A stretch of 64,000 nt of DNA from Moraxellaceae bacterium (GTDB lineage Bacteria > Pseudomonadota > Gammaproteobacteria > Pseudomonadales > Moraxellaceae), in NCBI GenBank assembly GCA_018260315.1, contig JAGLBJ010000001.1, forward strand, positions 42,420 to 106,419. Direction: 5' to 3'. Position 1 is the stretch's first letter. Each line of letters begins with the position of its first letter. The notes below the pieces were generated by a model, which was not told where the DNA came from, did no database searches, and was given only the letters and a program-made list of their open reading frames with translations. The translations under genes were made by a program, and so were the position numbers. Positions 2,781 through 49,800 of this stretch are shown here, one piece after another.

Positions 2781-3314
2781 TTATTTTTTCTTGGCTTCTT
2801 TACGGATAATTACTTCATCCGAATAACGGACACCTTTACCTTTATAAGGCTCTGGCGGACGATAAGAGCGAATATTAGCCGCTGCTTGTCCAAGTAACTG
2901 CTTGTCGTTAGACTTCAAAATAATTTCAGTCGGAGTCGGGGTTTCAGCAGTAACGCCTTCTGGCAATTTAAAGTCAATAGGATGTGAAAACCCTAAGGCT
3001 AAATTAACCATTTGACCTTTAGCCTGCGCTTTATATCCTACGCCAACCAATTGCAGTTTACGCTCAAACCCTTTGTCCACCCCAGTAATTAGATTATTAA
3101 TCACTGAGCGGGCTGTCCCTGCTTGCATCCATCCCGCAGGCGTTGCCTCAACGGGACTAAATAGAAGTTGGTCATTTTCCTGTTTGAGCTCGACCAGTGC
3201 ATGCAGGGTAAATTGCAGCGTACCACGACTGCCTTTTACAGATACCTGCCGACCGTTCTGAGTGACTTCTACCCCTTTAGGTAAAGTCACTGGGGCTTTT
3301 GCCACACGAGACAT
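2781..3314 (-). CDS. rplF: 50S ribosomal protein L6
   Basis: ORF-track ORF (to 3356) trimmed to [28 protein letters not shown]..., 177 aa. The 14 upstream codons are not L6-like. Confidence 0.95.
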
Positions 3315-3340
3315 GAGGATACACCTATGAATAAAACGAT

Positions 3341-3380
3341 TAAAAAAACAAACCATGAACGCCGATTTCAGTGTTCATGG
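3341..3380 (-). terminator. Terminator/attenuator-like hairpin plus U-tract inside the spc operon, in the rpsH-rplF spacer
   Basis: Perfect 8-bp inverted repeat ccatgaac (3353..3360) / gttcatgg (3373..3380) with a 12-nt loop. On the minus-strand RNA it is followed by UUUGUUUUUUUA (reverse complement of 3341..3352). Confidence 0.35.
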
Positions 3381-3423
3381 ATTGATTGACACACCACTGA
3401 CTAATGCTCTTTAAAATCCAAGA

Positions 3424-3819
3424 TTAAGAAACAATAGCAATTACTTCTCCGCCAATCCCTGCAGCACGGGCCGCACGATCGGTCATGATTCCTTTATTGG
3501 TCGATATAATGGCAATGCCCAACCCCTGTTTTATACGAGGTAATGCGTCTTTGCCACGATATTGACGTAAACCTGGACGGCTAAACCGTTTAATCGATTC
3601 AATAACCGGTTTACCTTCAAAATATTTTAAACTTAAAGTCAGCGTTTGCTTGCCTTCATTATCCGTCACTTCAATGCCATCAATAAAACCTTCAGATTGC
3701 AATACTTGAGCAATTGATTGTTTTAACTTAGACTGAGGCATCGAAACATCAGGTTTTTTTGCCATTTGTGCATTACGTACACGAGTTAACATGTCCGCAA
3801 CGGTATCTTGCATACTCAT
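3424..3819 (-). CDS. rpsH: 30S ribosomal protein S8
   Basis: 131 aa. [22 protein letters not shown] is typical S8. Confidence 0.96.
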
Positions 3820-3830
3820 ACTGCGCGCTC

Positions 3831-4136
3831 CTACCAGCTAGCCTTGACCACGCCTGGCACGTCGCCTTGCATGACTTTTTCACGCAACATGTTACGCGAC
3901 AAACCAAATTTACGGAAATATCCATGTGGACGACCCGTTAAGCCACAACGGTTACGCAAACGTACAGGCGATGCATTACGCGGTAAAGCTTGTAGTTTTT
4001 CCATCGCTGCATAACGCTCTTCATCGCTTGCGCTTGAACTCGCAATGGTCGTTTTTAACAATTCACGTTTAGCCGCGTACTGCGCTACCATTTTTTCGCG
4101 CTTGAGTTCGCGATTAATCATGCTCTTTTTAGCCAT
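3831..4136 (-). CDS. rpsN: 30S ribosomal protein S14
   Basis: 101 aa. [17 protein letters not shown] ... [26 protein letters not shown] ... ASW is typical S14. Confidence 0.96.
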
Positions 4137-4145
4137 CTCGATCTC

Positions 4146-4682
4146 TTACTTGAAAGGGAAGCCGAATGCGCGCAGCAATGCACGGCCTTCGTCATCTGTG
4201 GTGGCAGTGGTGGTAATGGTAATATCCATACCGCGAATCCGGTCAATTTTATCGTAATCAATTTCTGGAAATACGATCTGCTCTTTAATCCCCATGGAAT
4301 AATTACCGCGACCATCAAACGATTTTGCGGAAATCCCGCGGAAATCCCGAATCCGTGGAATGGCAATCGAAATTAAACGATCCAAAAATTCATACATGCG
4401 TTCGCCACGTAATGTGACTTTACAGCCAATAGGCCAGCCTTCGCGAATTTTAAACCCTGCAATGGAAGTCCGCGCGTGCGTAATAACAGGCTTTTGACCG
4501 GCGATTAACTGCATATCAGCAACTGCACCATCAAGCAACTTTTTGTCTTGTGATGCCCCACCAACACCCATATTCAAGGTGATTTTGGTAATCCGTGGAA
4601 TCTGCATTACATTATCAACGCCCAACTCTTCTTTGAGTTTTGCCTTGAGTTCATTGTTATAACGTACTTTAAGTCTGGCCAT
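4146..4682 (-). CDS. rplE: 50S ribosomal protein L5
   Basis: 178 aa. [21 protein letters not shown] ... [11 protein letters not shown] is typical L5. Confidence 0.96.
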
Positions 4683-4694
4683 TGCCTTTTCAAC

Positions 4695-5018
4695 CTATGA
4701 CTGTGCCACCGCCACTGGTTCACCATTTGAACGATAAACACGTGTTTTCACACCCGCTTCATCAATATGATAACCAACACGGTCAGCTTTTTGGGTTGCA
4801 GCGTTTAAAACCGCCACGTTAGAAATATGAAGCGAAGCCTCCTGAACAATGATGCCGCCTTCTGCACCCGTCGTCTGATTAGCTTTTTTATGCTTCTTAA
4901 CCAAGTTTAAGCCTTCAATTACAACTCGTTCGTTGCGCACCGAAAGCACTTTACCTTGATTACCCTTTTCTTTACCTGCGATTACAATAACTTGGTCGCC
5001 TGCTTTAATTTTTGCCAT
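4695..5018 (-). CDS. rplX: 50S ribosomal protein L24
   Basis: 107 aa. MAKIKAGDQVIVIAGKEKGNQGKVLSV carries the KOW motif of L24. Confidence 0.96.
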   Translation of the reverse strand: MAKIKAGDQVIVIAGKEKGNQGKVLSVRNERVVIEGLNLVKKHKKANQTTGAEGGIIVQEASLHISNVAVLNAATQKADRVGYHIDEAGVKTRVYRSNGEPVAVAQS

Positions 5019-5027
5019 AACTGCCTC

Positions 5028-5396
5028 TTACAATACTTCAGGGGCCAAGGAAATGATTTTCATAAATTGCTCAGTACGCAATTCACGAGTCACTGGTCCG
5101 AAGATGCGGGTGGCAATGGGGGCTTTGTTGTTGTTTAACAAAACAGCAGCATTATCATCAAAACGGATCAATGACCCATCTGGACGACGAATACCAAATT
5201 TTGTACGTACAACAACGGCGTTCATCACGTCGCCTTTTTTGACACGTCCGCGTGGAATGGCTTCCTTAACGGTTACCTTGATAATATCGCCAACTGAAGC
5301 ATAACGGCGATGCGAGCCGCCCAGTACTTTAATGCACTGAACGCGGCGAGCGCCACTATTGTCTGCTACGTCGAGCATGGTTTCAGTTTGAATCAT
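5028..5396 (-). CDS. rplN: 50S ribosomal protein L14
   Basis: 122 aa. [33 protein letters not shown] is typical L14. Confidence 0.97.
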
Positions 5397-5446
5397 TGCC
5401 CTACTCCAAGACTGTGCATTAAAGCATAAACGACTAAGGGGTGAAG

Positions 5447-5475
5447 ATTTTAGCCGATTTTATGATGTAATGCAA
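5447..5475 (-). promoter_or_regulatory. Candidate sigma70 promoter of the spc operon (rpsQ-rplN spacer)
   Basis: Minus strand reads TTGCAT-17 nt (tacatcataaaatcggc)-TAAAAT. It lies about 45 nt upstream of the rplN ATG, where the spc promoter sits in E. coli. Confidence 0.5.
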
Positions 5476-5483
5476 ATAAAATC

Positions 5484-5750
5484 TTAATTCTGCCCAGCCT
5501 GTTCAATTACTTCGACTAAAGTCCACGCTTTAGTTTTAGAGATTGGACGGCACTCTTTAATGGTCACCACATCGCCCATTTTGCAGATATTGTTTTCATC
5601 ATGAGCATGCAGTTTGGTTGAGCGGCGAATCATCTTGCCATAAACTGGATGCTTAATCCGACGTTCAATTAATACTACAATGGATTTTTCCATTTTATCA
5701 CTGACCACACGGCCAGTTAAGGTACGTTGAATGGTGGTTTGTTCAGTCAT
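5484..5750 (-). CDS. rpsQ: 30S ribosomal protein S17
   Basis: 88 aa. [31 protein letters not shown] is typical S17. Confidence 0.96.
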
Positions 5751-32855: not shown

Positions 32856-34880
32856 ATGATACGTAAACCGCCTATTATGCCTGCGCTTATAGAATGGCAT
32901 ACGATAACTGATGCCGACCATAAAGTGTATCATTTGCCATTTTCCAAACAATTTAATGATATTTATTATTCTACCGAAAACGGTCTGGCCGAAGCCAGAC
33001 ACTTATTTTTACAAGGCAATCACTTACCACAGCGATTAAGTGCCTTACAGCCTTTTGAACATTTTTGCATTGGTGAACTGGGCTTTGGTACAGGATTAAA
33101 CGTGCTGGCAGTTTGGCATCTGTGGCGACAGGTTCGGCCGTATGCTAATAATTGGCTACATATCGTCACCACTGAAAAACATCCCTTAAACAGAGCAGAT
33201 TTAATGCGCGCCCTCAGCAATTGGCCGGATTTAGCCGCCTTGAGTGAGCAACTGTTGGCACAATATCCGCCTTTAATGGCAGGTTGTCATCGCTTAATAT
33301 TTGCACAAGACAACGTCAGTCTTGATTTATGGCTGGGTGATGCTGCCGATTGTTTAGCTCAGGTGGCAGCGCCGAGGCCGCTTAATGCCTGGTTTTTAGA
33401 TGGTTTTACACCGGTGCATAATCCTGACCTGTGGCAAACGGCAGTTATGCAGCAGGTACAACGTTTATCGGGACCGGGTACAACATTAAGTACATTTAGT
33501 GTAGCGGGCGTAGTCAAACGTGAACTAGTAGCTCATGGATTTAATATTCAAAAGCAAGCGGGCTTTGGCCAAAAGCGGGCCATGTTAACGGCGTACCGGC
33601 CACCAATGAATGATTTAGAACATCAGCCTCAGGCCGACAAGCCATCATCTTCTAATTTCCGGGCTACCACTAAAATAGCGATTATCGGCGCAGGGATTGC
33701 TGGGTTATCAACTGCCTATGCATTAGCGCTTCGAGGTTTTCACGTTGATTTATATGATCAACAATATCCCTTAGCTGGCGCTTCCGGTAATCCAAGGGCG
33801 CTTCTTATTCCTCGTTTAACGTTACCTGAGCTAGCGCACGAACATTTTCATACGCTGGGCTGGCTAAGTACGGTGCGCTGGTGGAAGGCGTGGCAACATA
33901 CAGTTAATGGCACTGAAACGGTGATTGAATTAACATCAACAGCTTACGATGCACCGGGCGGATTAGCTCTAGCAACACCTAAAAATTCGCTGGATTTAAG
34001 CCGTTTGCAATACGACAATAACGAGATTTTACAGCCGCTTAATCCACAGCAAGCCAGTACGCTACTCGGTCAACCGGTTCAATCAGAAGGGGCATATTTT
34101 CCGGCAGCGGCTGTGATTAACCCCTTCGCCTTGGCGCGACAGGTTATGGGCCATGCTGCCATCGCCTTTAGGCAAGCCACAATTACTCGGTTGATTGAAC
34201 AGGCATCAACACAAGGCACAGCTTGGCAATTGGCAGGTATTCAAAACCCAGACACGCCAGTTCATCTAGTAGAAGTATTACCTGAAGTTTATTCCCATGT
34301 GGTGGTCTGTACGGCAGAATTTAACCAAACCTTACTGCCTTTTATTGAACCGTTACAGGCGATACGTGGTCAAGTTTCCTGGTTTAAAATAGATGCTAAA
34401 CTAGCGCAATATTTGCCAAAATTACCATTAACCTATGGCGGGTATTGTTTAAGGTTTGAAGCCTCTAAAGAACACCAACCCATGCCCTATTTTTTATTAG
34501 GCGCGTCTTTTATTCGGCAAAATCCACCATTAGCCAATATAAACACTTCACCTGTGACAGATGAAGAACACAAGCATAATTTTGGATTATTGCAAGAGGC
34601 ATTGCCAGCATGTGCAAGCTGGTTGCCCCCGATTAACGACTGGTTAGGGAGAGCCGCAACACGTGTACAAACCCGGGATTATTTGCCCGTCGTAGGGGAA
34701 ACAGTACTGAAAAACGTTTTTATAGTGACTGCATTGGGCTCAAAAGGCTTTAGTTTTGCACCCTTATGTGCCGAAATCATCAGCGCAGCAGTCACCCAAA
34801 CACCGGCACCCGTATCCCAAAACCTGCTTAAGGCATTGCACCCTAAGCGTTTATATCGAAAAATCAAACAAAATCATTAA
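32856..34880 (+). CDS. mnmC: Bifunctional tRNA (mnm5s2U34) methyltransferase / FAD-dependent cmnm5s2U34 oxidoreductase
   Basis: 674 aa. N-terminal FNDIYYSTENGLAEARHLFLQGNHLPQRL ... DAWFLDGF-type methyltransferase domain. C-terminal FAD domain with KIAIIGAGIAGLSTAYAL. Confidence 0.88.
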   Translation: MIRKPPIMPALIEWHTITDADHKVYHLPFSKQFNDIYYSTENGLAEARHLFLQGNHLPQRLSALQPFEHFCIGELGFGTGLNVLAVWHLWRQVRPYANNWLHIVTTEKHPLNRADLMRALSNWPDLAALSEQLLAQYPPLMAGCHRLIFAQDNVSLDLWLGDAADCLAQVAAPRPLNAWFLDGFTPVHNPDLWQTAVMQQVQRLSGPGTTLSTFSVAGVVKRELVAHGFNIQKQAGFGQKRAMLTAYRPPMNDLEHQPQADKPSSSNFRATTKIAIIGAGIAGLSTAYALALRGFHVDLYDQQYPLAGASGNPRALLIPRLTLPELAHEHFHTLGWLSTVRWWKAWQHTVNGTETVIELTSTAYDAPGGLALATPKNSLDLSRLQYDNNEILQPLNPQQASTLLGQPVQSEGAYFPAAAVINPFALARQVMGHAAIAFRQATITRLIEQASTQGTAWQLAGIQNPDTPVHLVEVLPEVYSHVVVCTAEFNQTLLPFIEPLQAIRGQVSWFKIDAKLAQYLPKLPLTYGGYCLRFEASKEHQPMPYFLLGASFIRQNPPLANINTSPVTDEEHKHNFGLLQEALPACASWLPPINDWLGRAATRVQTRDYLPVVGETVLKNVFIVTALGSKGFSFAPLCAEIISAAVTQTPAPVSQNLLKALHPKRLYRKIKQNH

Positions 34881-35305
34881 TTCACACGACGTAATGCGGT
34901 TTGACTGCTTAAGGTTTCTTGACACTTACGCACACCGTGTAAAATATGCGCTAATGCGGTCCCCGGCGTTGACAACACCATAACAATTAACGTGACATCA
35001 ACCGTTTTAAACTCACGTACGTAAATATGACCATTGTTGGCTTCAATCGTAAGTGACCGGCAGCCTTCCAAACCCGCTTCAAACACCAGTGCGCTACCCA
35101 TAGCCAACATCGAGCTACTTACGGCAGCCAATTTATCGCTGTTGTAATCGGGCACGGCAGACAACGTAAAGCCGTCCATAGTGGCTAACATTGCCGATTT
35201 AATACCCGTTACATCGTCGCGTAACTGGGTCAGCGAACGCCTTGCCTGTACCAAAAACAGGGGTTCAAATTTGTCGGTCACTACTTTATTGGGCATAATT
35301 TTCAT
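34877..35305 (-). CDS. Roadblock/LC7 (MglB/CvnB-like) domain protein
   Basis: 142 aa. VTGIKSAMLATMDGFTLSAV ... KLAAVSSSMLAMGSAL ... SLTIEANNGHIYVREF ... LIVMVLS follows the Robl alpha-beta-alpha pattern. Lies 66 nt downstream of the GTPase gene. Confidence 0.75.
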   Translation of the reverse strand: MKIMPNKVVTDKFEPLFLVQARRSLTQLRDDVTGIKSAMLATMDGFTLSAVPDYNSDKLAAVSSSMLAMGSALVFEAGLEGCRSLTIEANNGHIYVREFKTVDVTLIVMVLSTPGTALAHILHGVRKCQETLSSQTALRRVN

Positions 35306-35371
35306 CTCTTAACATAGAATTTAGGGTAAAGCTGCTTCCGTTAGCCACTACAGGTCAACGCGATGTCAGGC

Positions 35372-35902
35372 TCAATCTTGCGGTTCTAACAGGGCAATGA
35401 GGACATGCAGCAACATCGAAATATCTTCACGACGGCGCGCATCAACAAAAAATAACGGAATCGATAAATTACGTGCTTTTAACCAGTTAGCATATTGTTC
35501 GGTATCTTGATTTAAGCCTTCGTCAGCATGAGTGACTGCTAACACCAACAACACATTGGGGTCATTTTCAACGTAATAATTGACGTATTTTTCAAGTTGC
35601 GAAATCGGATTTTCAGCCGAATGATCGACGTAAATAATCGTCCCCAATGCGCCAGTCTGTACTGTTTTCCAGACAAATTCAAAGCGTTCTTGCCCGGGCG
35701 TACCGTAAATCATCACTTCAACATCATCACCGAGTTTTACAATGCCGTAGTCAATACCAACCGTCGTCATTGCTTTAGTATGTTGGTCTTGGTCGATATT
35801 CGCCACATCGGTTGAAACCGGTGTACTATCCGAAATCGCGCGAATAGCGGTTGTTTTGCCTGCACCCATTGCACCAGCAAACACAAACTTATAACGCATC
35901 AT
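35372..35902 (-). CDS. Small Ras-like P-loop GTPase of the MglA / CvnD (COG2229) type
   Basis: 176 aa. G1 GAMGAGKTT, switch-I TTVGIDYG, G3 YGTPGQERF (the xGTPGQ variant typical of COG2229), G4 VTHAD. AAGGA Shine-Dalgarno. Confidence 0.8.
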   Translation of the reverse strand: MMRYKFVFAGAMGAGKTTAIRAISDSTPVSTDVANIDQDQHTKAMTTVGIDYGIVKLGDDVEVMIYGTPGQERFEFVWKTVQTGALGTIIYVDHSAENPISQLEKYVNYYVENDPNVLLVLAVTHADEGLNQDTEQYANWLKARNLSIPLFFVDARRREDISMLLHVLIALLEPQD

Positions 35903-36070
35903 GCTAGCATATCCTTAGTGAAACATTATACAGCGCTTAAAAAGCGCTTAATAATAACGTGTTATAAAAAAAGAATGGGTTAAATAACCTACTGCGACAT
36001 CTTTAAAAATTCTATCCAATAGCGCTTTTAGCCTCTTTAAGACCGGCCGTTTAAAATAATCTAGGGCGCA

Positions 36071-37045
36071 TTAAAGTCCCAATTTGGAACGTAACCGTCC
36101 CAACATGCCCTTAAAACCTTGTCCTTGCTGTACTTCCGGGGGCAGCCCTGCATTACGATTATTGAGCTTGACCTGTGCTGCGGTATTATCTGCCGAGGTC
36201 GCCGAACGTGCATAGCCCAACAATTGTAAGGCATGTAACGTTTGGTTAATCGTTGCGCGGTCAATATCCCCAATGGCCAGCAAATCTTGCAGAGAAGAAT
36301 TTTTAACGTGCAAATAACCACAAATACGTAAAATATCACTAATCGGCATGGGTGCAGCCGGTTGCGGCCAACGGTCCAAGGTCCAACGTTGTTCTAAGGC
36401 AGCCGCTTCTCTACCGTCTTCACCGCCCAGTCGCCATGCCAAATCCCATAACCAGACAGACATAGGCATGCTAACTTCGGCAAGAGGCTGCGGTATGGCT
36501 CTTACATCAAACGTGGCGTGTGAAATTTGTCGGCTAATATTGGCATTTAACGGCCAAACCCGATGATTTGTACTGTCAACCCAAGCCAGTGGCTGACCAT
36601 TGGCCGTTAATTGACCCTGTCCGCCTTTTTGCCATAATGCTTGTAAATTTTCGAGAATCTTATCATCTTTGGGAGCCTGATTTTGTCCAGGGACGATACC
36701 GCTCGCAACACGCAAATATTGATATAAATCGGAGGTCGATTGAATGGGCACTGAAATCGAATATTGTTGATTTTCTTTAACGACTTCAAAGGGCTTTGTC
36801 GGGTCGCGACGTACCCACAGGACCCGCACATGGCCTGCTTGCAAAAGTTTATTAATTTGTGGTGAATCCATAAATAAATGGCTGACAATCAACAACTGTT
36901 TTGAAGGGTCTTGACCGGTAACCCACTCTAAGCTTAAGCCGTGTTCGGCGCTTAACATTCTAAAATAACCACGTACTAAGCTTTCATCGGCGTTCGATAA
37001 CCCGACACAAGCAATGCGCAATACTTTACCATCAATCGAAGACAC
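36071..37045 (-). CDS. Orphan ~325-aa protein: receiver-like N-terminus without acidic pocket, Trp-rich middle, DUF742-like HTH segment, C-terminal amphipathic helix
   Basis: Open frame 36071..37060 (TTG at 37060, no Shine-Dalgarno). GTG 37045 follows GGGGGA by 7 nt and is preferred. No ATG occurs before codon 35. No family recognised. Confidence 0.6.
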   Translation of the reverse strand: MSSIDGKVLRIACVGLSNADESLVRGYFRMLSAEHGLSLEWVTGQDPSKQLLIVSHLFMDSPQINKLLQAGHVRVLWVRRDPTKPFEVVKENQQYSISVPIQSTSDLYQYLRVASGIVPGQNQAPKDDKILENLQALWQKGGQGQLTANGQPLAWVDSTNHRVWPLNANISRQISHATFDVRAIPQPLAEVSMPMSVWLWDLAWRLGGEDGREAAALEQRWTLDRWPQPAAPMPISDILRICGYLHVKNSSLQDLLAIGDIDRATINQTLHALQLLGYARSATSADNTAAQVKLNNRNAGLPPEVQQGQGFKGMLGRLRSKLGL

Positions 37046-37284
37046 TGGGTTTTCCCCCAAAAGTCACAAAATAAAAAGCGGCGTTTATAACCAACATTGG
37101 GGTACGCTACATACTTTGAACATAATATCTAACAGCATTTTTACTAAAATTAATAAGCCCGTTAATTTAATATCCAACAGCCATGCATCAAACAGTCATC
37201 ACTTACTTTACAAATAATCGTCAATTTACGAGCGATCGGTCATCTCAATACCGCATGATATCACCATGTCCTTAAGATAACAAA

Positions 37285-37312
37285 ATAACTTGACACCGCA
37301 GCATCAAGTTAT
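37285..37312 (-). terminator. Hairpin downstream of the 118-aa Roadblock gene
   Basis: ataacttga (37285..37293) and tcaagttat (37304..37312) form a perfect 9-bp stem with a 10-nt loop. On the minus strand it is followed by UUUGUU. The stem is AT-rich and therefore weak. Confidence 0.35.
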
Positions 37313-37339
37313 GTTTAAACCTCTAAGCCATTTTAAGAC

Positions 37340-37696
37340 TTAAGAAAAGTCTAAGTTGCCTTCATATGATTTTAGACTGTGCCGTGCCATCGCTAAGTTA
37401 GCTTTCTTACGGTCTAATACAACGTAGATAAATAACGCAGGATTACGCTCTAAAGGACGTAACAAGTGATATTGTTTGCCTAAAGTGATTAAAATATCTT
37501 CGATATTATCATTTAAGCCCAAAGAGGCGGCAACGCGACGTTTAGCACGTAACACTTCGGTATTACCCGCAGCGGCTAAATCTAAATCGATGTTGTCACC
37601 ATCCATTGCCAATGCTAAACCACTATCACTATCAACGATTGCAGATGCAATATAACCATCTAAACCTTTTAAATCATCCAAACTTAATTTTGCCAT
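37340..37696 (-). CDS. Roadblock/LC7-like protein (second copy, different subfamily)
   Basis: 118 aa. GAGG Shine-Dalgarno 5 nt before the ATG. LKGLDGYIASAIVDSDSGLALAMDG ... DILITLGKQYHLLRPL ... LFIYVVLD fits the Robl fold pattern. Confidence 0.6.
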   Translation of the reverse strand: MAKLSLDDLKGLDGYIASAIVDSDSGLALAMDGDNIDLDLAAAGNTEVLRAKRRVAASLGLNDNIEDILITLGKQYHLLRPLERNPALFIYVVLDRKKANLAMARHSLKSYEGNLDFS

Positions 37697-37769
37697 TTTA
37701 GCCTCTCTAGTAGATTAGAAAAATAAGACTTAAAGCATCCATTATAGACGTTTTAACGTTCTAACATGA

Positions 37770-37785
37770 TAGCAAAGCTTTGCTA
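37770..37785. promoter_or_regulatory. Perfect 16-bp palindrome TAGCAAAGCTTTGCTA upstream of the Roadblock gene (candidate operator)
   Basis: Read directly. Its centre lies about 80 bp upstream of the ATG at 37696. Confidence 0.3.
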
Positions 37786-38236
37786 CCTTTTATACAGCAA
37801 CTGTTAGCATGGTCAAAAGTTGCATCACACTTAAACGGTTGCATCGCTGTATCATACTTTGATGTTTAGCAATGAACAAGCCTAAAGCCTTATTATTACA
37901 TATCTAAACAATAAACTATAAGATCGTTGCTTTTTTAAGAAAATAATATGAAGTATCAAGACATTACTTCATTTATGCAACCATCTGATTACAGACGATC
38001 GAATCAATGAGCTTTTAACCGAATAAACACTTGCTCACTCAACTCACCATTATCCTTTATTTTTACAATAGTTCACTACCTTAAGTCTAACGTTTTACGG
38101 CTTTCATCGGAAATGTGCATATTTTAAGGAGCAAACAGATCAATTGTGCTCATTCACTCTTATATTTAAGGCCAGTCTTACTTATAGTGAACATTTGTAA
38201 GATGTTTTAAAATAATTGTTTAACCATGTTTATAAG

Positions 38237-46821: not shown

Positions 46822-49800
46822 TTATTGAGGGTCGGCTTGAGTGGTTTTTAACAGCGTCAATAAATTGGCCGCCTTCGGTTTAACCAGATAGAACTTGCGC
46901 ACATATTCATCAAAGGCATTTAAAATAGTTTGACCCCACGCACTGCCGGTTTCCTGCACATATTCTTCAAGCACACTGCGTAAATGATGGCGATAATGCT
47001 CGGTTGATTCGGTTGAAATACGATTTAAATCGATAAGTTCATGGTTGCACCGGTCAAAGAAATCTCCTTCCATATCCAGCACATATGCAAAACCACCGGT
47101 CATTCCGGCACCAAAATTCAGGCCAGTACGCCCTAAAACTGTGACCAAACCGCCGGTCATATATTCACAGCAATGGTCGCCCGCGCCTTCAATGACGGCA
47201 TGCGCGCCCGAATTACGCACGGCAAAGCGCTCGCCTGCTGTACCGGCTGCAAAAAGTTTGCCACCCGTTGCGCCATATAAACATGTATTGCCGATAATAG
47301 CCGTTTCCTGACTGGCAAATGGCGACCCTTTCGGCGGATAAATGGCAATCGAACCACCCGCCATGCCTTTGCCGACATAGTCGTTGGAATCACCTTCCAG
47401 GCGAATATGCAGGCCGCCCGCATTCCAGACACCCAACGATTGCCCAGCCGTACCGCTTAAATGCAGGGTAATCGGTGCATCGGTCATGCCTAGATTGCCG
47501 TAACGTTGCGCAATTTCACCCGACAAACGCGCCCCCAGCGACCGGTCACGATTATGCACCGTATAGGTAAATGTGCCACCCGATTTTTGCTCAATCGCAG
47601 GTAGAATATCCTGTACCATTTGCTCGGCCAGTTCGCCCTTGTCATGCGGCTCGTTGCGGCCTTCAGTGCAATATTGCGGCGCACCTTCAGCACTGGCATG
47701 AATCGTCAATAGCGGTTTTAAATCAATATTGCGCTGTTTGTCGGTAGTTCCTTCAATCATGCTGAGTAAATCGGTCCGGCCAATGAGGTCACGCAACGAC
47801 CGCACGCCCAATAACGCCAGCCATTGCCGCGTTTCTTCTGCCACAAACCGGAAGAAATTGATCAGCATGTCAGGCTCGCCGATATAATGCTGTTTACGCA
47901 ATACGTCTTGTTGTGTAGCCACACCGGTTGCACAGTTATTTAAGTGACAGATGCGCAGGTATTTACAACCCAGCGCAATCATCGGCGTAGAACCGAATCC
48001 AAAACTTTCAGCGCCCAAAATCGCCGCTTTCACGACATCTAAACCGGTTTTTAAACCGCCATCGGTCTGAACACGCACCTTGCCGCGCAACCCGTTGATG
48101 CGTAATGCCTGATGCGCTTCCGACAGGCCCAGTTCCCAAGGCGAACCGGCATAATGAATCGACGATAACGGACTTGCTGCCGTTCCGCCGTCATAGCCTG
48201 AAATGGTGATAAAATCGGCATAGGCTTTAGCTACACCGGCAGCAATGGTTCCTACTCCGGGCTCGGCAACCAGTTTGACTGAAACCATCGCACGCGGATT
48301 AACCTGTTTTAAGTCAAAAATCAACTGCGATAAATCTTCAATCGAATAAATATCATGATGCGGTGGTGGTGAAATCAAGGTTACGCCGGGCACCGAATAA
48401 CGTAAGCGTGCAATGAGTCCGTTAACCTTGCCGCCCGGTAATTGCCCGCCTTCACCCGGCTTGGCCCCTTGCGCTACTTTAATCTGCAACACTTCAGCCG
48501 ATGCCAAATAAGCCGGTGTAACACCAAAACGACCTGAAGCAATTTGCTTGATTTTTGAATTTTTGAGCGTACCGTAACGTGCCGGGTCTTCACCACCTTC
48601 ACCCGAATTTGAGCGCCCGCCAATCGTATTCATGGCAATGGCGATCGACTCATGCGCTTCAGGCGACAATGCTCCAAGCGACATACCAGCCGAATCAAAC
48701 CTCGGCAAAATCTCTTCGACTGATTCTACCTCGGCAATATCGATACGCTGTTCGGTATTTAAGGTCAATAAATCACGCAACGTAGCCACAGGTCGATTAT
48801 TCACCAAATCTGCATAGCGCCGATAATCTTCATAATCGCCCGACCGAACCGCATCATGCAACGTGTTTATCACGTCGGGATTAAAGGCATGGTACTCTTT
48901 TTGATAAATATACTTTAACAAACCACCCGCATCAATCGGTTGACGTTTTTTCCAGGCATGCGCCGCCAATAAAGCCTGGTCATGCTCTAAATCAACAAAA
49001 CGCGCCCCTTCGATACGGCTTGGTACGCCTTTAAAACAACACTGTACCACTTCAGAAGCCAGCCCAATGGCTTCAAACAATTGTCCTGCACGGTACGAGG
49101 CAACCGTTGAAATCCCCATTTTCGACAAAATTTTCAGCAGGCCCTTATCAATGCCTTTACGATAATAAGCCTGCGCTTCCAACGGGTCGCCCAACAATTC
49201 CCCACGCGCCACCAAATCGTTAATAACATCATAAGCCAAATACGGATACACCGCCGACGCACCAAAACCAATCAGTACGGCAAACTGATGCGGGTCACGT
49301 GCCAGGCCGGTTTCAACCAGAATATTGGCATCAGTACGCAAGCCCACTTCCGATAAATAATGGTGAATGGCACCCGTGGCTAAAATTGCACTGGCTGGCA
49401 AATAACCGGGCCGAATGGCTTTATCAGACAATAACAGTAGGGTCGCACCATCGCGAACCGCTTGCTCAGCCTCCGCACAAATGCGTTTAAGGGCCGCTTC
49501 CAAGCCTTCGGTTTGGGCATAATTTAAATCGAGGATATAAAGCGCATAACCGGGCCGCTTGATGGCGCGTAACTGCTGCATTTTGCTGGCACTAAGCACG
49601 GGACTCGAAATAATTACACGGTCGGCATGTTCAGGGCTTTGCTCAAATACGTTTTGCTCACGGCCAAGCGAGGTTTCAAGCGACATCACAATCGATTCGC
49701 GCAACGGGTCAATCGGCGGATTGGTCACCTGGGCAAACTGTTGGCGGAAATAATCAGCCACATGACGAATTTTATGTGACAAAACCGCCATCGGAGTATC

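Follow-up and report, generated by a model that had tools for sequence, protein, structure and literature searches.

What is the cluster of four minus-strand genes that separates mnmC from hemH in a Moraxellaceae bacterium, and how might a small GTPase operate there beside two Roadblock proteins when no sensor kinase is encoded nearby? The cluster, called the cassette here, lies in a stretch of 64,000 nucleotides (contig JAGLBJ010000001.1 of assembly GCA_018260315.1, positions 42,420 to 106,419 of the forward strand), and this whole stretch is referred to as the window. A preliminary description of the window had placed four consecutive minus-strand genes between mnmC and hemH, and all four open reading frames (ORFs) are found there at the coordinates given, so that its dissection of the module is correct (lengths in amino acids, aa):

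g1 (gene i): 37340-37696, minus strand, 118 aa, cryptic Roadblock/LC7 fold as predicted from a model
g2 (gene ii): 36071-37045 from a GTG start (324 aa) or to 37060 from a TTG start (329 aa), minus strand, Pfam-less 'DUF' scaffold
g3 (gene iii): 35372-35902, minus strand, 176-aa Ras-superfamily GTPase by its motifs, MglA Group 3 type
g4 (gene iv): 34877-35305, minus strand, 142-aa classical Roadblock/LC7 protein, CvnB/MglB-like

Judged by its parts, motifs and homology, the cassette is a Group 3 MglA system. The preliminary description took it for an undescribed system; it matches a class that was catalogued in 2015 (PMC4316618). The accompanying remark that such modules have no assigned function is essentially true. 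We propose, with moderate confidence, that the cassette works as a self-contained, kinase-less small-GTPase switch of MglA Group 3, controlled by a GTPase-activating protein (GAP) and a guanine nucleotide exchange factor (GEF).

Group 3 MglA systems and conservation of the cassette

The MglA family has been split into five groups, with the conservon GTPases as Group 2 (Wuichet & Søgaard-Andersen 2015, Genome Biol Evol 7:57; PMC4316618). According to that survey, Group 3 is found 'almost exclusively' in beta- and gammaproteobacteria; its GTPase has a G4 motif without the Lys of [NT]KxD and a G5 motif that reads DAR; and the GTPase gene is accompanied by one or two coupled MglB genes and by a Pfam-less 'DUF' predicted to be receiver-like at the N-terminus and winged-helix-like at the C-terminus, with a variable linker in between. 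Every one of these defining features is present in the cassette. The GTPase g3 has VTHAD as G4 and DAR as G5, g2 is a Pfam-less partner with a weakly receiver-like N-terminus, variable linkers and a winged-helix C-terminus, and the MglB genes are represented by g4 (from its Pfam match) and g1 (from its modelled fold). The host range agrees as well. A genome scan with the GTPase alignment found 594 relatives, of which the best 80, all at most 50% identical, come from beta- and gammaproteobacteria (Acinetobacter, Moraxella, Psychrobacter, Aquirhabdus, Cardiobacteriaceae, Thiomargarita and the betaproteobacterium Parvibium), and Ralstonia and Neisseria carry relatives.

Members listed in the survey belong to Acinetobacter, Neisseria, Xanthomonas and Stenotrophomonas (PMC4316618). 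The A. calcoaceticus locus (L056) contains g1, g2, a GTPase ORF of 186 aa, which is the length listed in the survey's table, and g4. The gene order is where the window departs from the class as listed: the survey gives DUF>MglA>MglB for Acinetobacter calcoaceticus (BDGL_002466) and A. oleivorans, DUF>MglA>MglB>MglB for Neisseria and MglB>DUF>MglA for Xanthomonas, whereas the window has MglB(g1)>DUF>MglA>MglB(g4). The upstream MglB is missing from the Acinetobacter entries of 2015, probably owing to the sub-threshold Pfam score of g1.

By its motifs, g3 is a member of the Ras superfamily. It matches Pfam PF03029 (ATP_bind_1) at 33.7 bits (cut-off 27), and Ras and Roc also match. The motifs GAMGAGKTT, YGTPGQERF and VTHAD, from which the preliminary description had recognized a P-loop GTPase, are all present; the full set is GAMGAGKT (G1), TTVGIDYG (G2), YGTPGQERF (G3), VTHAD (G4) and DAR (G5). 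The P-loop, the switch-I Thr, the switch-II Gly-Gln and the DAR of G5 are intact, and the motifs are conserved in 21 homologues; across the family G4 reads (A/G)xTHxD, and D154-A155-R156 is invariant in the 21 sequences. Database homologues number 827, and those with a named host are all from Acinetobacter.

The cassette is a real, conserved unit. We took a census of 88 sources (87 fetched loci plus the window; mainly Moraxellaceae, some Cardiobacteriaceae and others), in which ORFs were called and searched with family hidden Markov models (HMMs). The g2 family accompanies the GTPase gene in 84 of the 88, and clustering is far beyond chance; the same families recur together in the 87 fetched loci. 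The gene orders are:

g1>g2>g3>g4 (the order of the window): 43 sources
g3>g4>g2>g1: 7 sources, plus locus L052, without a detected g4
g2>g3>g4: 19 sources
g2>g3 only: 15 sources

The preliminary description had suggested co-occurrence and synteny as a check on the module, and the four families do travel together across genera. When ORFs in the flanks of 28 lineages were clustered without bias, only the four cassette families (present in 28, 27, 25 and 17 lineages) proved common to them, and no fifth conserved partner gene was found in these flanks. Identity to the window protein is 61-81% for g1, 44-64% for the GTPase, 21-59% for g4 and about 22% for g2.

The permuted form g3>g4>g2>g1 is often a second copy within the same genome. 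Variable flanks, the two paralogous copies in several Acinetobacter genomes, and copies on a conjugative plasmid of A. wuhouensis and on Ralstonia megaplasmids could all suggest a mobile accessory cassette, such as an anti-phage or stress module, in place of housekeeping signalling. We regard this as very improbable. The cassette is found in many Acinetobacter species of the genome scan and encodes no effector domain, such as a nuclease or a toxin. A PADLOC scan gave no meaningful match for the four proteins, only trivial P-loop matches, and anti-phage defence was rejected on that ground.

Several of the individual loci have features of their own. Many Acinetobacter genomes (L011, L014-L017, L027, L029 and others) hold a second paralogous copy consisting of a 325-aa g2-like protein and a 180-aa GTPase, and no Roadblock gene was detected beside these copies. 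On the conjugative 50-kb plasmid NZ_CP033119.1 of Acinetobacter wuhouensis (L095), matches to the GTPase and to g1 flank the record origin (1-501 and 48261-48572), which is consistent with a plasmid-borne, mobile GTPase>g4>g2>g1 cassette. In one Ralstonia locus (L097) a g2-like gene is followed by genes for a GTPase, a g4-like protein and, last, a g1-like protein. The megaplasmid AP024100.1 of Ralstonia solanacearum (L089, 3620-7708) carries a different GTPase/Roadblock cassette: a Group 3-like GTPase, a 436-aa protein that joins a P-loop/ABC-like ATPase to a dual-specificity protein phosphatase, a Roadblock, an IclR-like helix-turn-helix (HTH) protein and a weak Roadblock. In Neisseria gonorrhoeae NZ_CP119140.1 (L100; a 2.17-Mb chromosome in a record labelled plasmid) the g2, GTPase and g4 HMMs match at 2e-7, 1e-35 and 4e-12. 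This Group 3 locus (2891-5560) looks pseudogenized: the GTPase gene is broken into two ORFs that overlap each other (4001-4243 and 4168-4536), and separate ORFs encode the N-terminal and C-terminal parts of the g2-like protein.

Two Roadblock proteins and a scaffold

The preliminary description had called g4 a classical Roadblock/LC7 protein, and Pfam Robl_LC7 matches it at 36.8 bits, above the cut-off. The g4 family profile finds solved Roadblock structures [7f8m (6e-12), 9jue, Rv3364c (2e-7) and CvnB5 (3leq, 3e-7)]; its match to MglB is marginal (E about 0.8-0.9), and it is nearer to the CvnB-like Roadblocks. In most loci g4 sits downstream of the GTPase gene.

For g1, described earlier as Roadblock/LC7-like, the Pfam Robl_LC7 match is sub-threshold (19.5 bits; gathering cut-off 23) and the best PDB sequence match has E = 0.23. 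The AlphaFold2 model [predicted local distance difference test (pLDDT) 88.4, predicted template-modelling score (pTM) 0.82] has the alpha-beta-beta-alpha-beta-beta-beta-alpha topology of a Roadblock, and Foldseek agrees: the template-modelling (TM) score is 0.81 against the Streptomyces Roadblock 3kye and about 0.8 against MglB from Thermus and Myxococcus (3t12, 1j3w and 6h5b). The model also superposes on LAMTOR subunits and MglC (TM 0.7-0.8 for most, 0.59 for MglC). As modelled, g1 is a cryptic Roadblock from a different subfamily than g4. The possibility that it is a close paralogue of g4 is ruled out, as the jackhmmer sets are disjoint and the hhalign probability is 1%.

The most conserved part of the cassette is g1. 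It has more than 7,900 homologues, and proteins from Streptomyces, Embleya, Nocardia, Deinococcus and Ralstonia are 53-59% identical to it. Such conservation across phyla suggests a constrained interaction surface that is worth study in its own right; this cryptic, ultra-conserved Roadblock is an addition of the present work. Identity to the Hymenobacter protein is 39%. The cross-phylum g1-type proteins (L096-L099, L101-L103) are often annotated 'hypothetical', and in Hymenobacter and Streptomyces g1-type genes occur in tandem duplicate. A stand-alone g1 gene of Psychrobacter lies between an Fe-S biogenesis gene and gshA, and that of Deinococcus gobiensis is on plasmid P1.

The scaffold protein g2 belongs to a fast-evolving family without a Pfam model. 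The preliminary description could not place it in any family, and neither Pfam nor NCBIfam assigns it to one; the only match is a faint one to MarR_2 (aa 255-289). A word-indexed search retrieves g2 alone, and an exhaustive search retrieves 90 representatives of 118-544 aa, mostly 300-540 aa. The GTG start at 37045, given in the preliminary description, is also that of the NCBI-derived protein P0001 and has a GGGGGA motif resembling a ribosome-binding site 7 nt upstream; residues are numbered here from the TTG at 37060. The AlphaFold2 model has a pLDDT of 84.3. In the protein a variable low-complexity linker connects the N-terminal pseudo-receiver to a Trp-rich domain and a winged helix, and a second linker leads on to a basic terminal helix. 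The structured elements are:

36701-37024 (aa 13-120), minus strand: N-terminal flavodoxin-like pseudo-receiver without the phospho-acceptor Asp
36371-36664 (aa 133-230), minus strand: Trp-rich alpha/beta middle domain, confident in the model
36152-36349 (aa 238-303), minus strand: winged-helix-like domain with profile matches in the PDB
36074-36121, minus strand: basic C-terminal helix, consensus GFLSRLRxKLGL, in the window FKGMLGRLRSKLGL

In a Foldseek search with the full-length model, the matches are weak ones (E of at least 1.4e-3), to flavodoxins, to the wing domain of LdcI and to the receiver of ComE. The N-terminal domain is called a pseudo-receiver because the acceptor position, at the end of beta3, is Asn (35), Ser (9) or Gly (3) in 47 of 50 sequences; Asp is not among the commonest residues listed for this column. 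Four residues (W169, W203, W231 and P234) are near-invariant in the family alignment. The Trp-rich middle domain gave no structural match in the Foldseek search of the full model and no sequence match in the profile search of the PDB.

The winged-helix profile finds KdgR, an IclR-type regulator and the best PDB sequence match of g2 (E = 0.004), and also TFE, Z-alpha and TrmB; several family members have weak HTH matches in Pfam. Together with the receiver-like N-terminus, this winged-helix C-terminus would fit an atypical response-regulator-like DNA-binding protein that controls transcription and is modulated by the GTPase and the Roadblocks, a reading put forward by Wuichet & Søgaard-Andersen 2015 (PMC4316618). 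We consider it possible but rather unlikely. The putative recognition helix is poorly conserved, with a median net charge of 0, and the winged helix as a whole is near 0, which argues mildly against DNA binding; the terminal helix (residues 316-326 in the model, median net charge +4) is the only consistently basic element of g2. No conserved neighbouring target gene is found in the 28 lineages. Moreover, the domain aligns with CvnC/DUF742, a family whose member MfpC is a reported GEF (PMC11343762).

This alignment spans both the winged helix and the C-terminal helix. Against five Streptomyces DUF742 proteins, the C-terminal region of g2 gives an hhalign probability of 77% and a score of 39.4, compared with a mean of 11.1 and a maximum of 18.1 in 100 column shuffles. 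The result is suggestive of a resemblance of g2, in its winged helix and terminal helix, to CvnC/DUF742. In the terminal helix R324 is invariant and L327 and G328 are nearly so; the hydrophobic moment has a median of 0.41 and a median rank in the top 18% of windows. A MinD-like membrane-targeting helix, whose composition looks similar, was considered here and, the hydrophobic moment being unremarkable, is kept solely as a hypothesis. The excerpts of PMC4316618 make no mention of a conserved basic terminal helix or of a likeness to DUF742; the CvnC-like C-terminal part of g2, basic helix included, is new in this work, as is the census of arrangements.

Conservons, polarity modules and a kinase-less switch

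The preliminary description compared the cassette to the actinobacterial conservons. The profile similarity of the C-terminal part of g2 to CvnC/DUF742 bears the comparison out in part; membership of the conservons does not stand. Both have a CvnB-like Roadblock (g4 in the window) and a COG2229-type GTPase whose G3 reads GxPGQxRF and whose G5 reads DAR; between Roadblock and GTPase there is, in both, a winged-helix protein whose terminal helix is conserved. The membrane histidine kinase CvnA, present in the conservons fetched for comparison, has no counterpart here: no histidine kinase is encoded in the cassette neighbourhood, as the preliminary description had also noted of a cvnA-type sensor kinase. 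The CvnD GTPases (four from Streptomyces) have an 8-residue insertion in switch I and a G4 of the form (A/V)(V/I)NxF, both of which the window and the beta/gamma GTPases lack; the G4 of the window is THxD, and in an alignment that includes the four CvnD proteins g3 goes with the beta/gamma GTPases. CvnC is Pfam DUF742 and about 110-150 aa long, whereas g2 adds the pseudo-receiver and the Trp-rich domain and has no Pfam DUF742 match; the earlier remark that it is far larger than CvnC holds, the factor being about three. The window also has a second, different Roadblock, and the conservon hosts are Actinomycetota, unlike the proteobacteria here. Lacking the kinase, the CvnD-type switch-I insertion and the CvnD-type G4, the cassette is not a conservon. 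Group 3 systems are the counterpart of the actinobacterial conservons in proteobacteria.

The other system to which the cassette bears a likeness is the polarity switch of Myxococcus and Thermus. MglA-MglB (Group 1) likewise combines a Ras-like GTPase with Roadblock-fold regulators, and MglA-MglB with MglC, RomR and RomX likewise has two different Roadblocks, as well as a scaffold in which a receiver-like domain is combined with a low-complexity linker. The canonical [NT]KxD G4 of Group 1 MglA, a GTPase that also has an intrinsic arginine finger, is replaced in the window by THxD, and G5 also differs. Sequence similarity between g2 and RomR did not come to light, though no search aimed at it was made. 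As to MglB itself, g1 is close to it in modelled fold, whereas g4 is nearer to the CvnB-like proteins in sequence, and a GAP activity is only predicted. In contrast to the Group 1 polarity modules, the cassette has no conserved genomic link to motility genes.

On the strength of this likeness the cassette could be a type IV pilus or polarity module, in which the GTPase would mark pilus sites, the Roadblocks would confine it and g2 would serve as a RomR-like scaffold; we think this unlikely. The receiver-like domain and low-complexity linker of g2 recall RomR, the g1 model matches MglB and MglC structures, and type IV pili are well known from many Group 3 hosts, although co-occurrence weighs little given how widespread such pili are in these taxa. 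The preliminary description had pointed to pilus genes in the same window. PilQ and PilM are indeed encoded there, but the link is weak: pilMNOPQ is about 17 kb away from the cassette and is not linked to it in other genomes. The three closest metagenomic relatives have the cassette abutting pilU/pilT-like genes (PF00437; L004 7071-9347, L005 4642-5613, L006 184-1314), and the corresponding side in the window holds hemH and lptG/lptF instead. PF00437 genes lie within 8 kb of the cassette in only 3 of the 88 sources, so a conserved type IV pilus linkage is ruled out; the absence of any pilus gene among the conserved neighbours in 28 lineages argues against a dedicated pilus module. Moreover, the GTPase and the polarity GTPases fall into separate MglA groups that differ in both G4 and G5. 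The sole experimental hint is from Snodgrassella communis, a Group 3 organism, in which the G78R substitution in an orphan mglB, a Roadblock paralogue, changed both the spreading of colonies on 0.5% agar and the host-specific colonization of the gut (2024; PMC11112851). Pilus involvement was not demonstrated in that paper, and the orphan gene (mglB-3) is no more than a possible orthologue of g1 or g4.

We therefore return to the kinase-less Group 3 switch. Here g4, probably as a dimer, would act as the GAP of g3, in the manner of MglB on MglA and MfpD on MfpB. The winged helix and terminal helix of g2, as a CvnC/DUF742 counterpart, may promote nucleotide exchange on g3, hold the complex together, or both. 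The precedent is MfpB, for which MfpC (DUF742) is the GEF and MfpD (Roadblock) is stated to be the GAP (PMC11343762); a structure of MfpD has been published (PMC13015309). The basic terminal helix of g2 may tether the complex to the membrane or to a partner, taking the place of the conservon kinase CvnA, and its non-phosphorylatable receiver-like domain could offer a docking or input surface. A role as co-regulator or adaptor is conceivable for g1, either as a homodimer or as a heterodimer with g4; g1 adjoins g2 both in g1>g2>g3>g4 and in g3>g4>g2>g1. Candidate outputs are surface or type IV pilus behaviour, or gene expression.

Several observations weigh against this proposal. Fifteen loci with g2 and g3 have no detected Roadblock gene, and Roadblock regulation is therefore not obligatory in cis. 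Stand-alone g1 genes occur far from GTPase genes (Psychrobacter L101/L102, L103 and Deinococcus L098), and g1 may therefore serve more than this cassette. The similarity of g2 to DUF742 may be a generic one between winged helices of the IclR/MarR kind: Pfam DUF742 is not among the 25 families listed, of 40 found with 50 g2 members at E <= 0.1, and a purpose-built DUF742 HMM matches no g2 homologue. The hydrophobic moment of the terminal helix is not outstanding, and membrane binding by g2 is therefore a guess. Finally, we found no mechanistic study of any Group 3 system in the literature, and no protein of the present family is known from a biochemical or genetic test.

A more detailed version of the switch can be imagined, which would be membrane-tethered, with g2 as a pseudo-receiver fused to a CvnC-type exchange factor and g1 as a universal adaptor (in Actinobacteria and Deinococcus too), and whose output would be surface behaviour that depends on type IV pili, in Acinetobacter, Moraxella, Neisseria and relatives. 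Taken as a whole, this elaboration is unlikely. Were the switch shown to control pili, or some other major trait of Acinetobacter or Neisseria, the finding would gain in interest. Group 3 systems are carried by key pathogens (the Acinetobacter calcoaceticus-baumannii complex, Neisseria, Stenotrophomonas and Moraxella). The parts list (one GTPase, two Roadblocks that differ from each other, and a scaffold whose end resembles CvnC) provides a concrete hypothesis for a Ras-like switch without a sensor kinase, and there are tractable hosts, for example A. baylyi, in which the idea can be tried.

The locus in its genome

The cassette is flanked by mnmC (Methyltransf_30 and DAO domains) and hemH (ferrochelatase), and the genes around it in the window are mnmC, a K+ channel gene, DUF4442, htpG, hemH, lptG and lptF. 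The intergenic gaps, counted from the listed ORF ends, are 280, 168 and 66 bp; with the GTG start at 37045 the first becomes 294 bp. This first gap contains two further elements:

37285-37312, minus strand: terminator-like hairpin followed by a U-rich tract, 28 nt past the g1 stop codon
37283-37255, minus strand: promoter-like site just past the hairpin, from a consensus scan

RNA folding gives the hairpin -18.9 kcal/mol (z = -3.56 against shuffles). The two elements would serve as terminator and promoter, to judge by sequence, and since a stable hairpin with a U-tract follows g1, this gene may be transcribed partly on its own. No Rfam match was found in the region at E <= 0.1.

Upstream of g1, a 540-bp AT-rich spacer (37697-38236) separates it from hemH; the GC content is 0.35-0.37, compared with about 0.45 around it, and the spacer contains no ORF of at least 60 aa and no Rfam match. 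At the other end of the cassette mnmC (plus strand) and g4 (minus strand) are convergent, with their 3' ends overlapping by 4 nt (34877-34880), a junction that is also preserved in the closest relative (L006).

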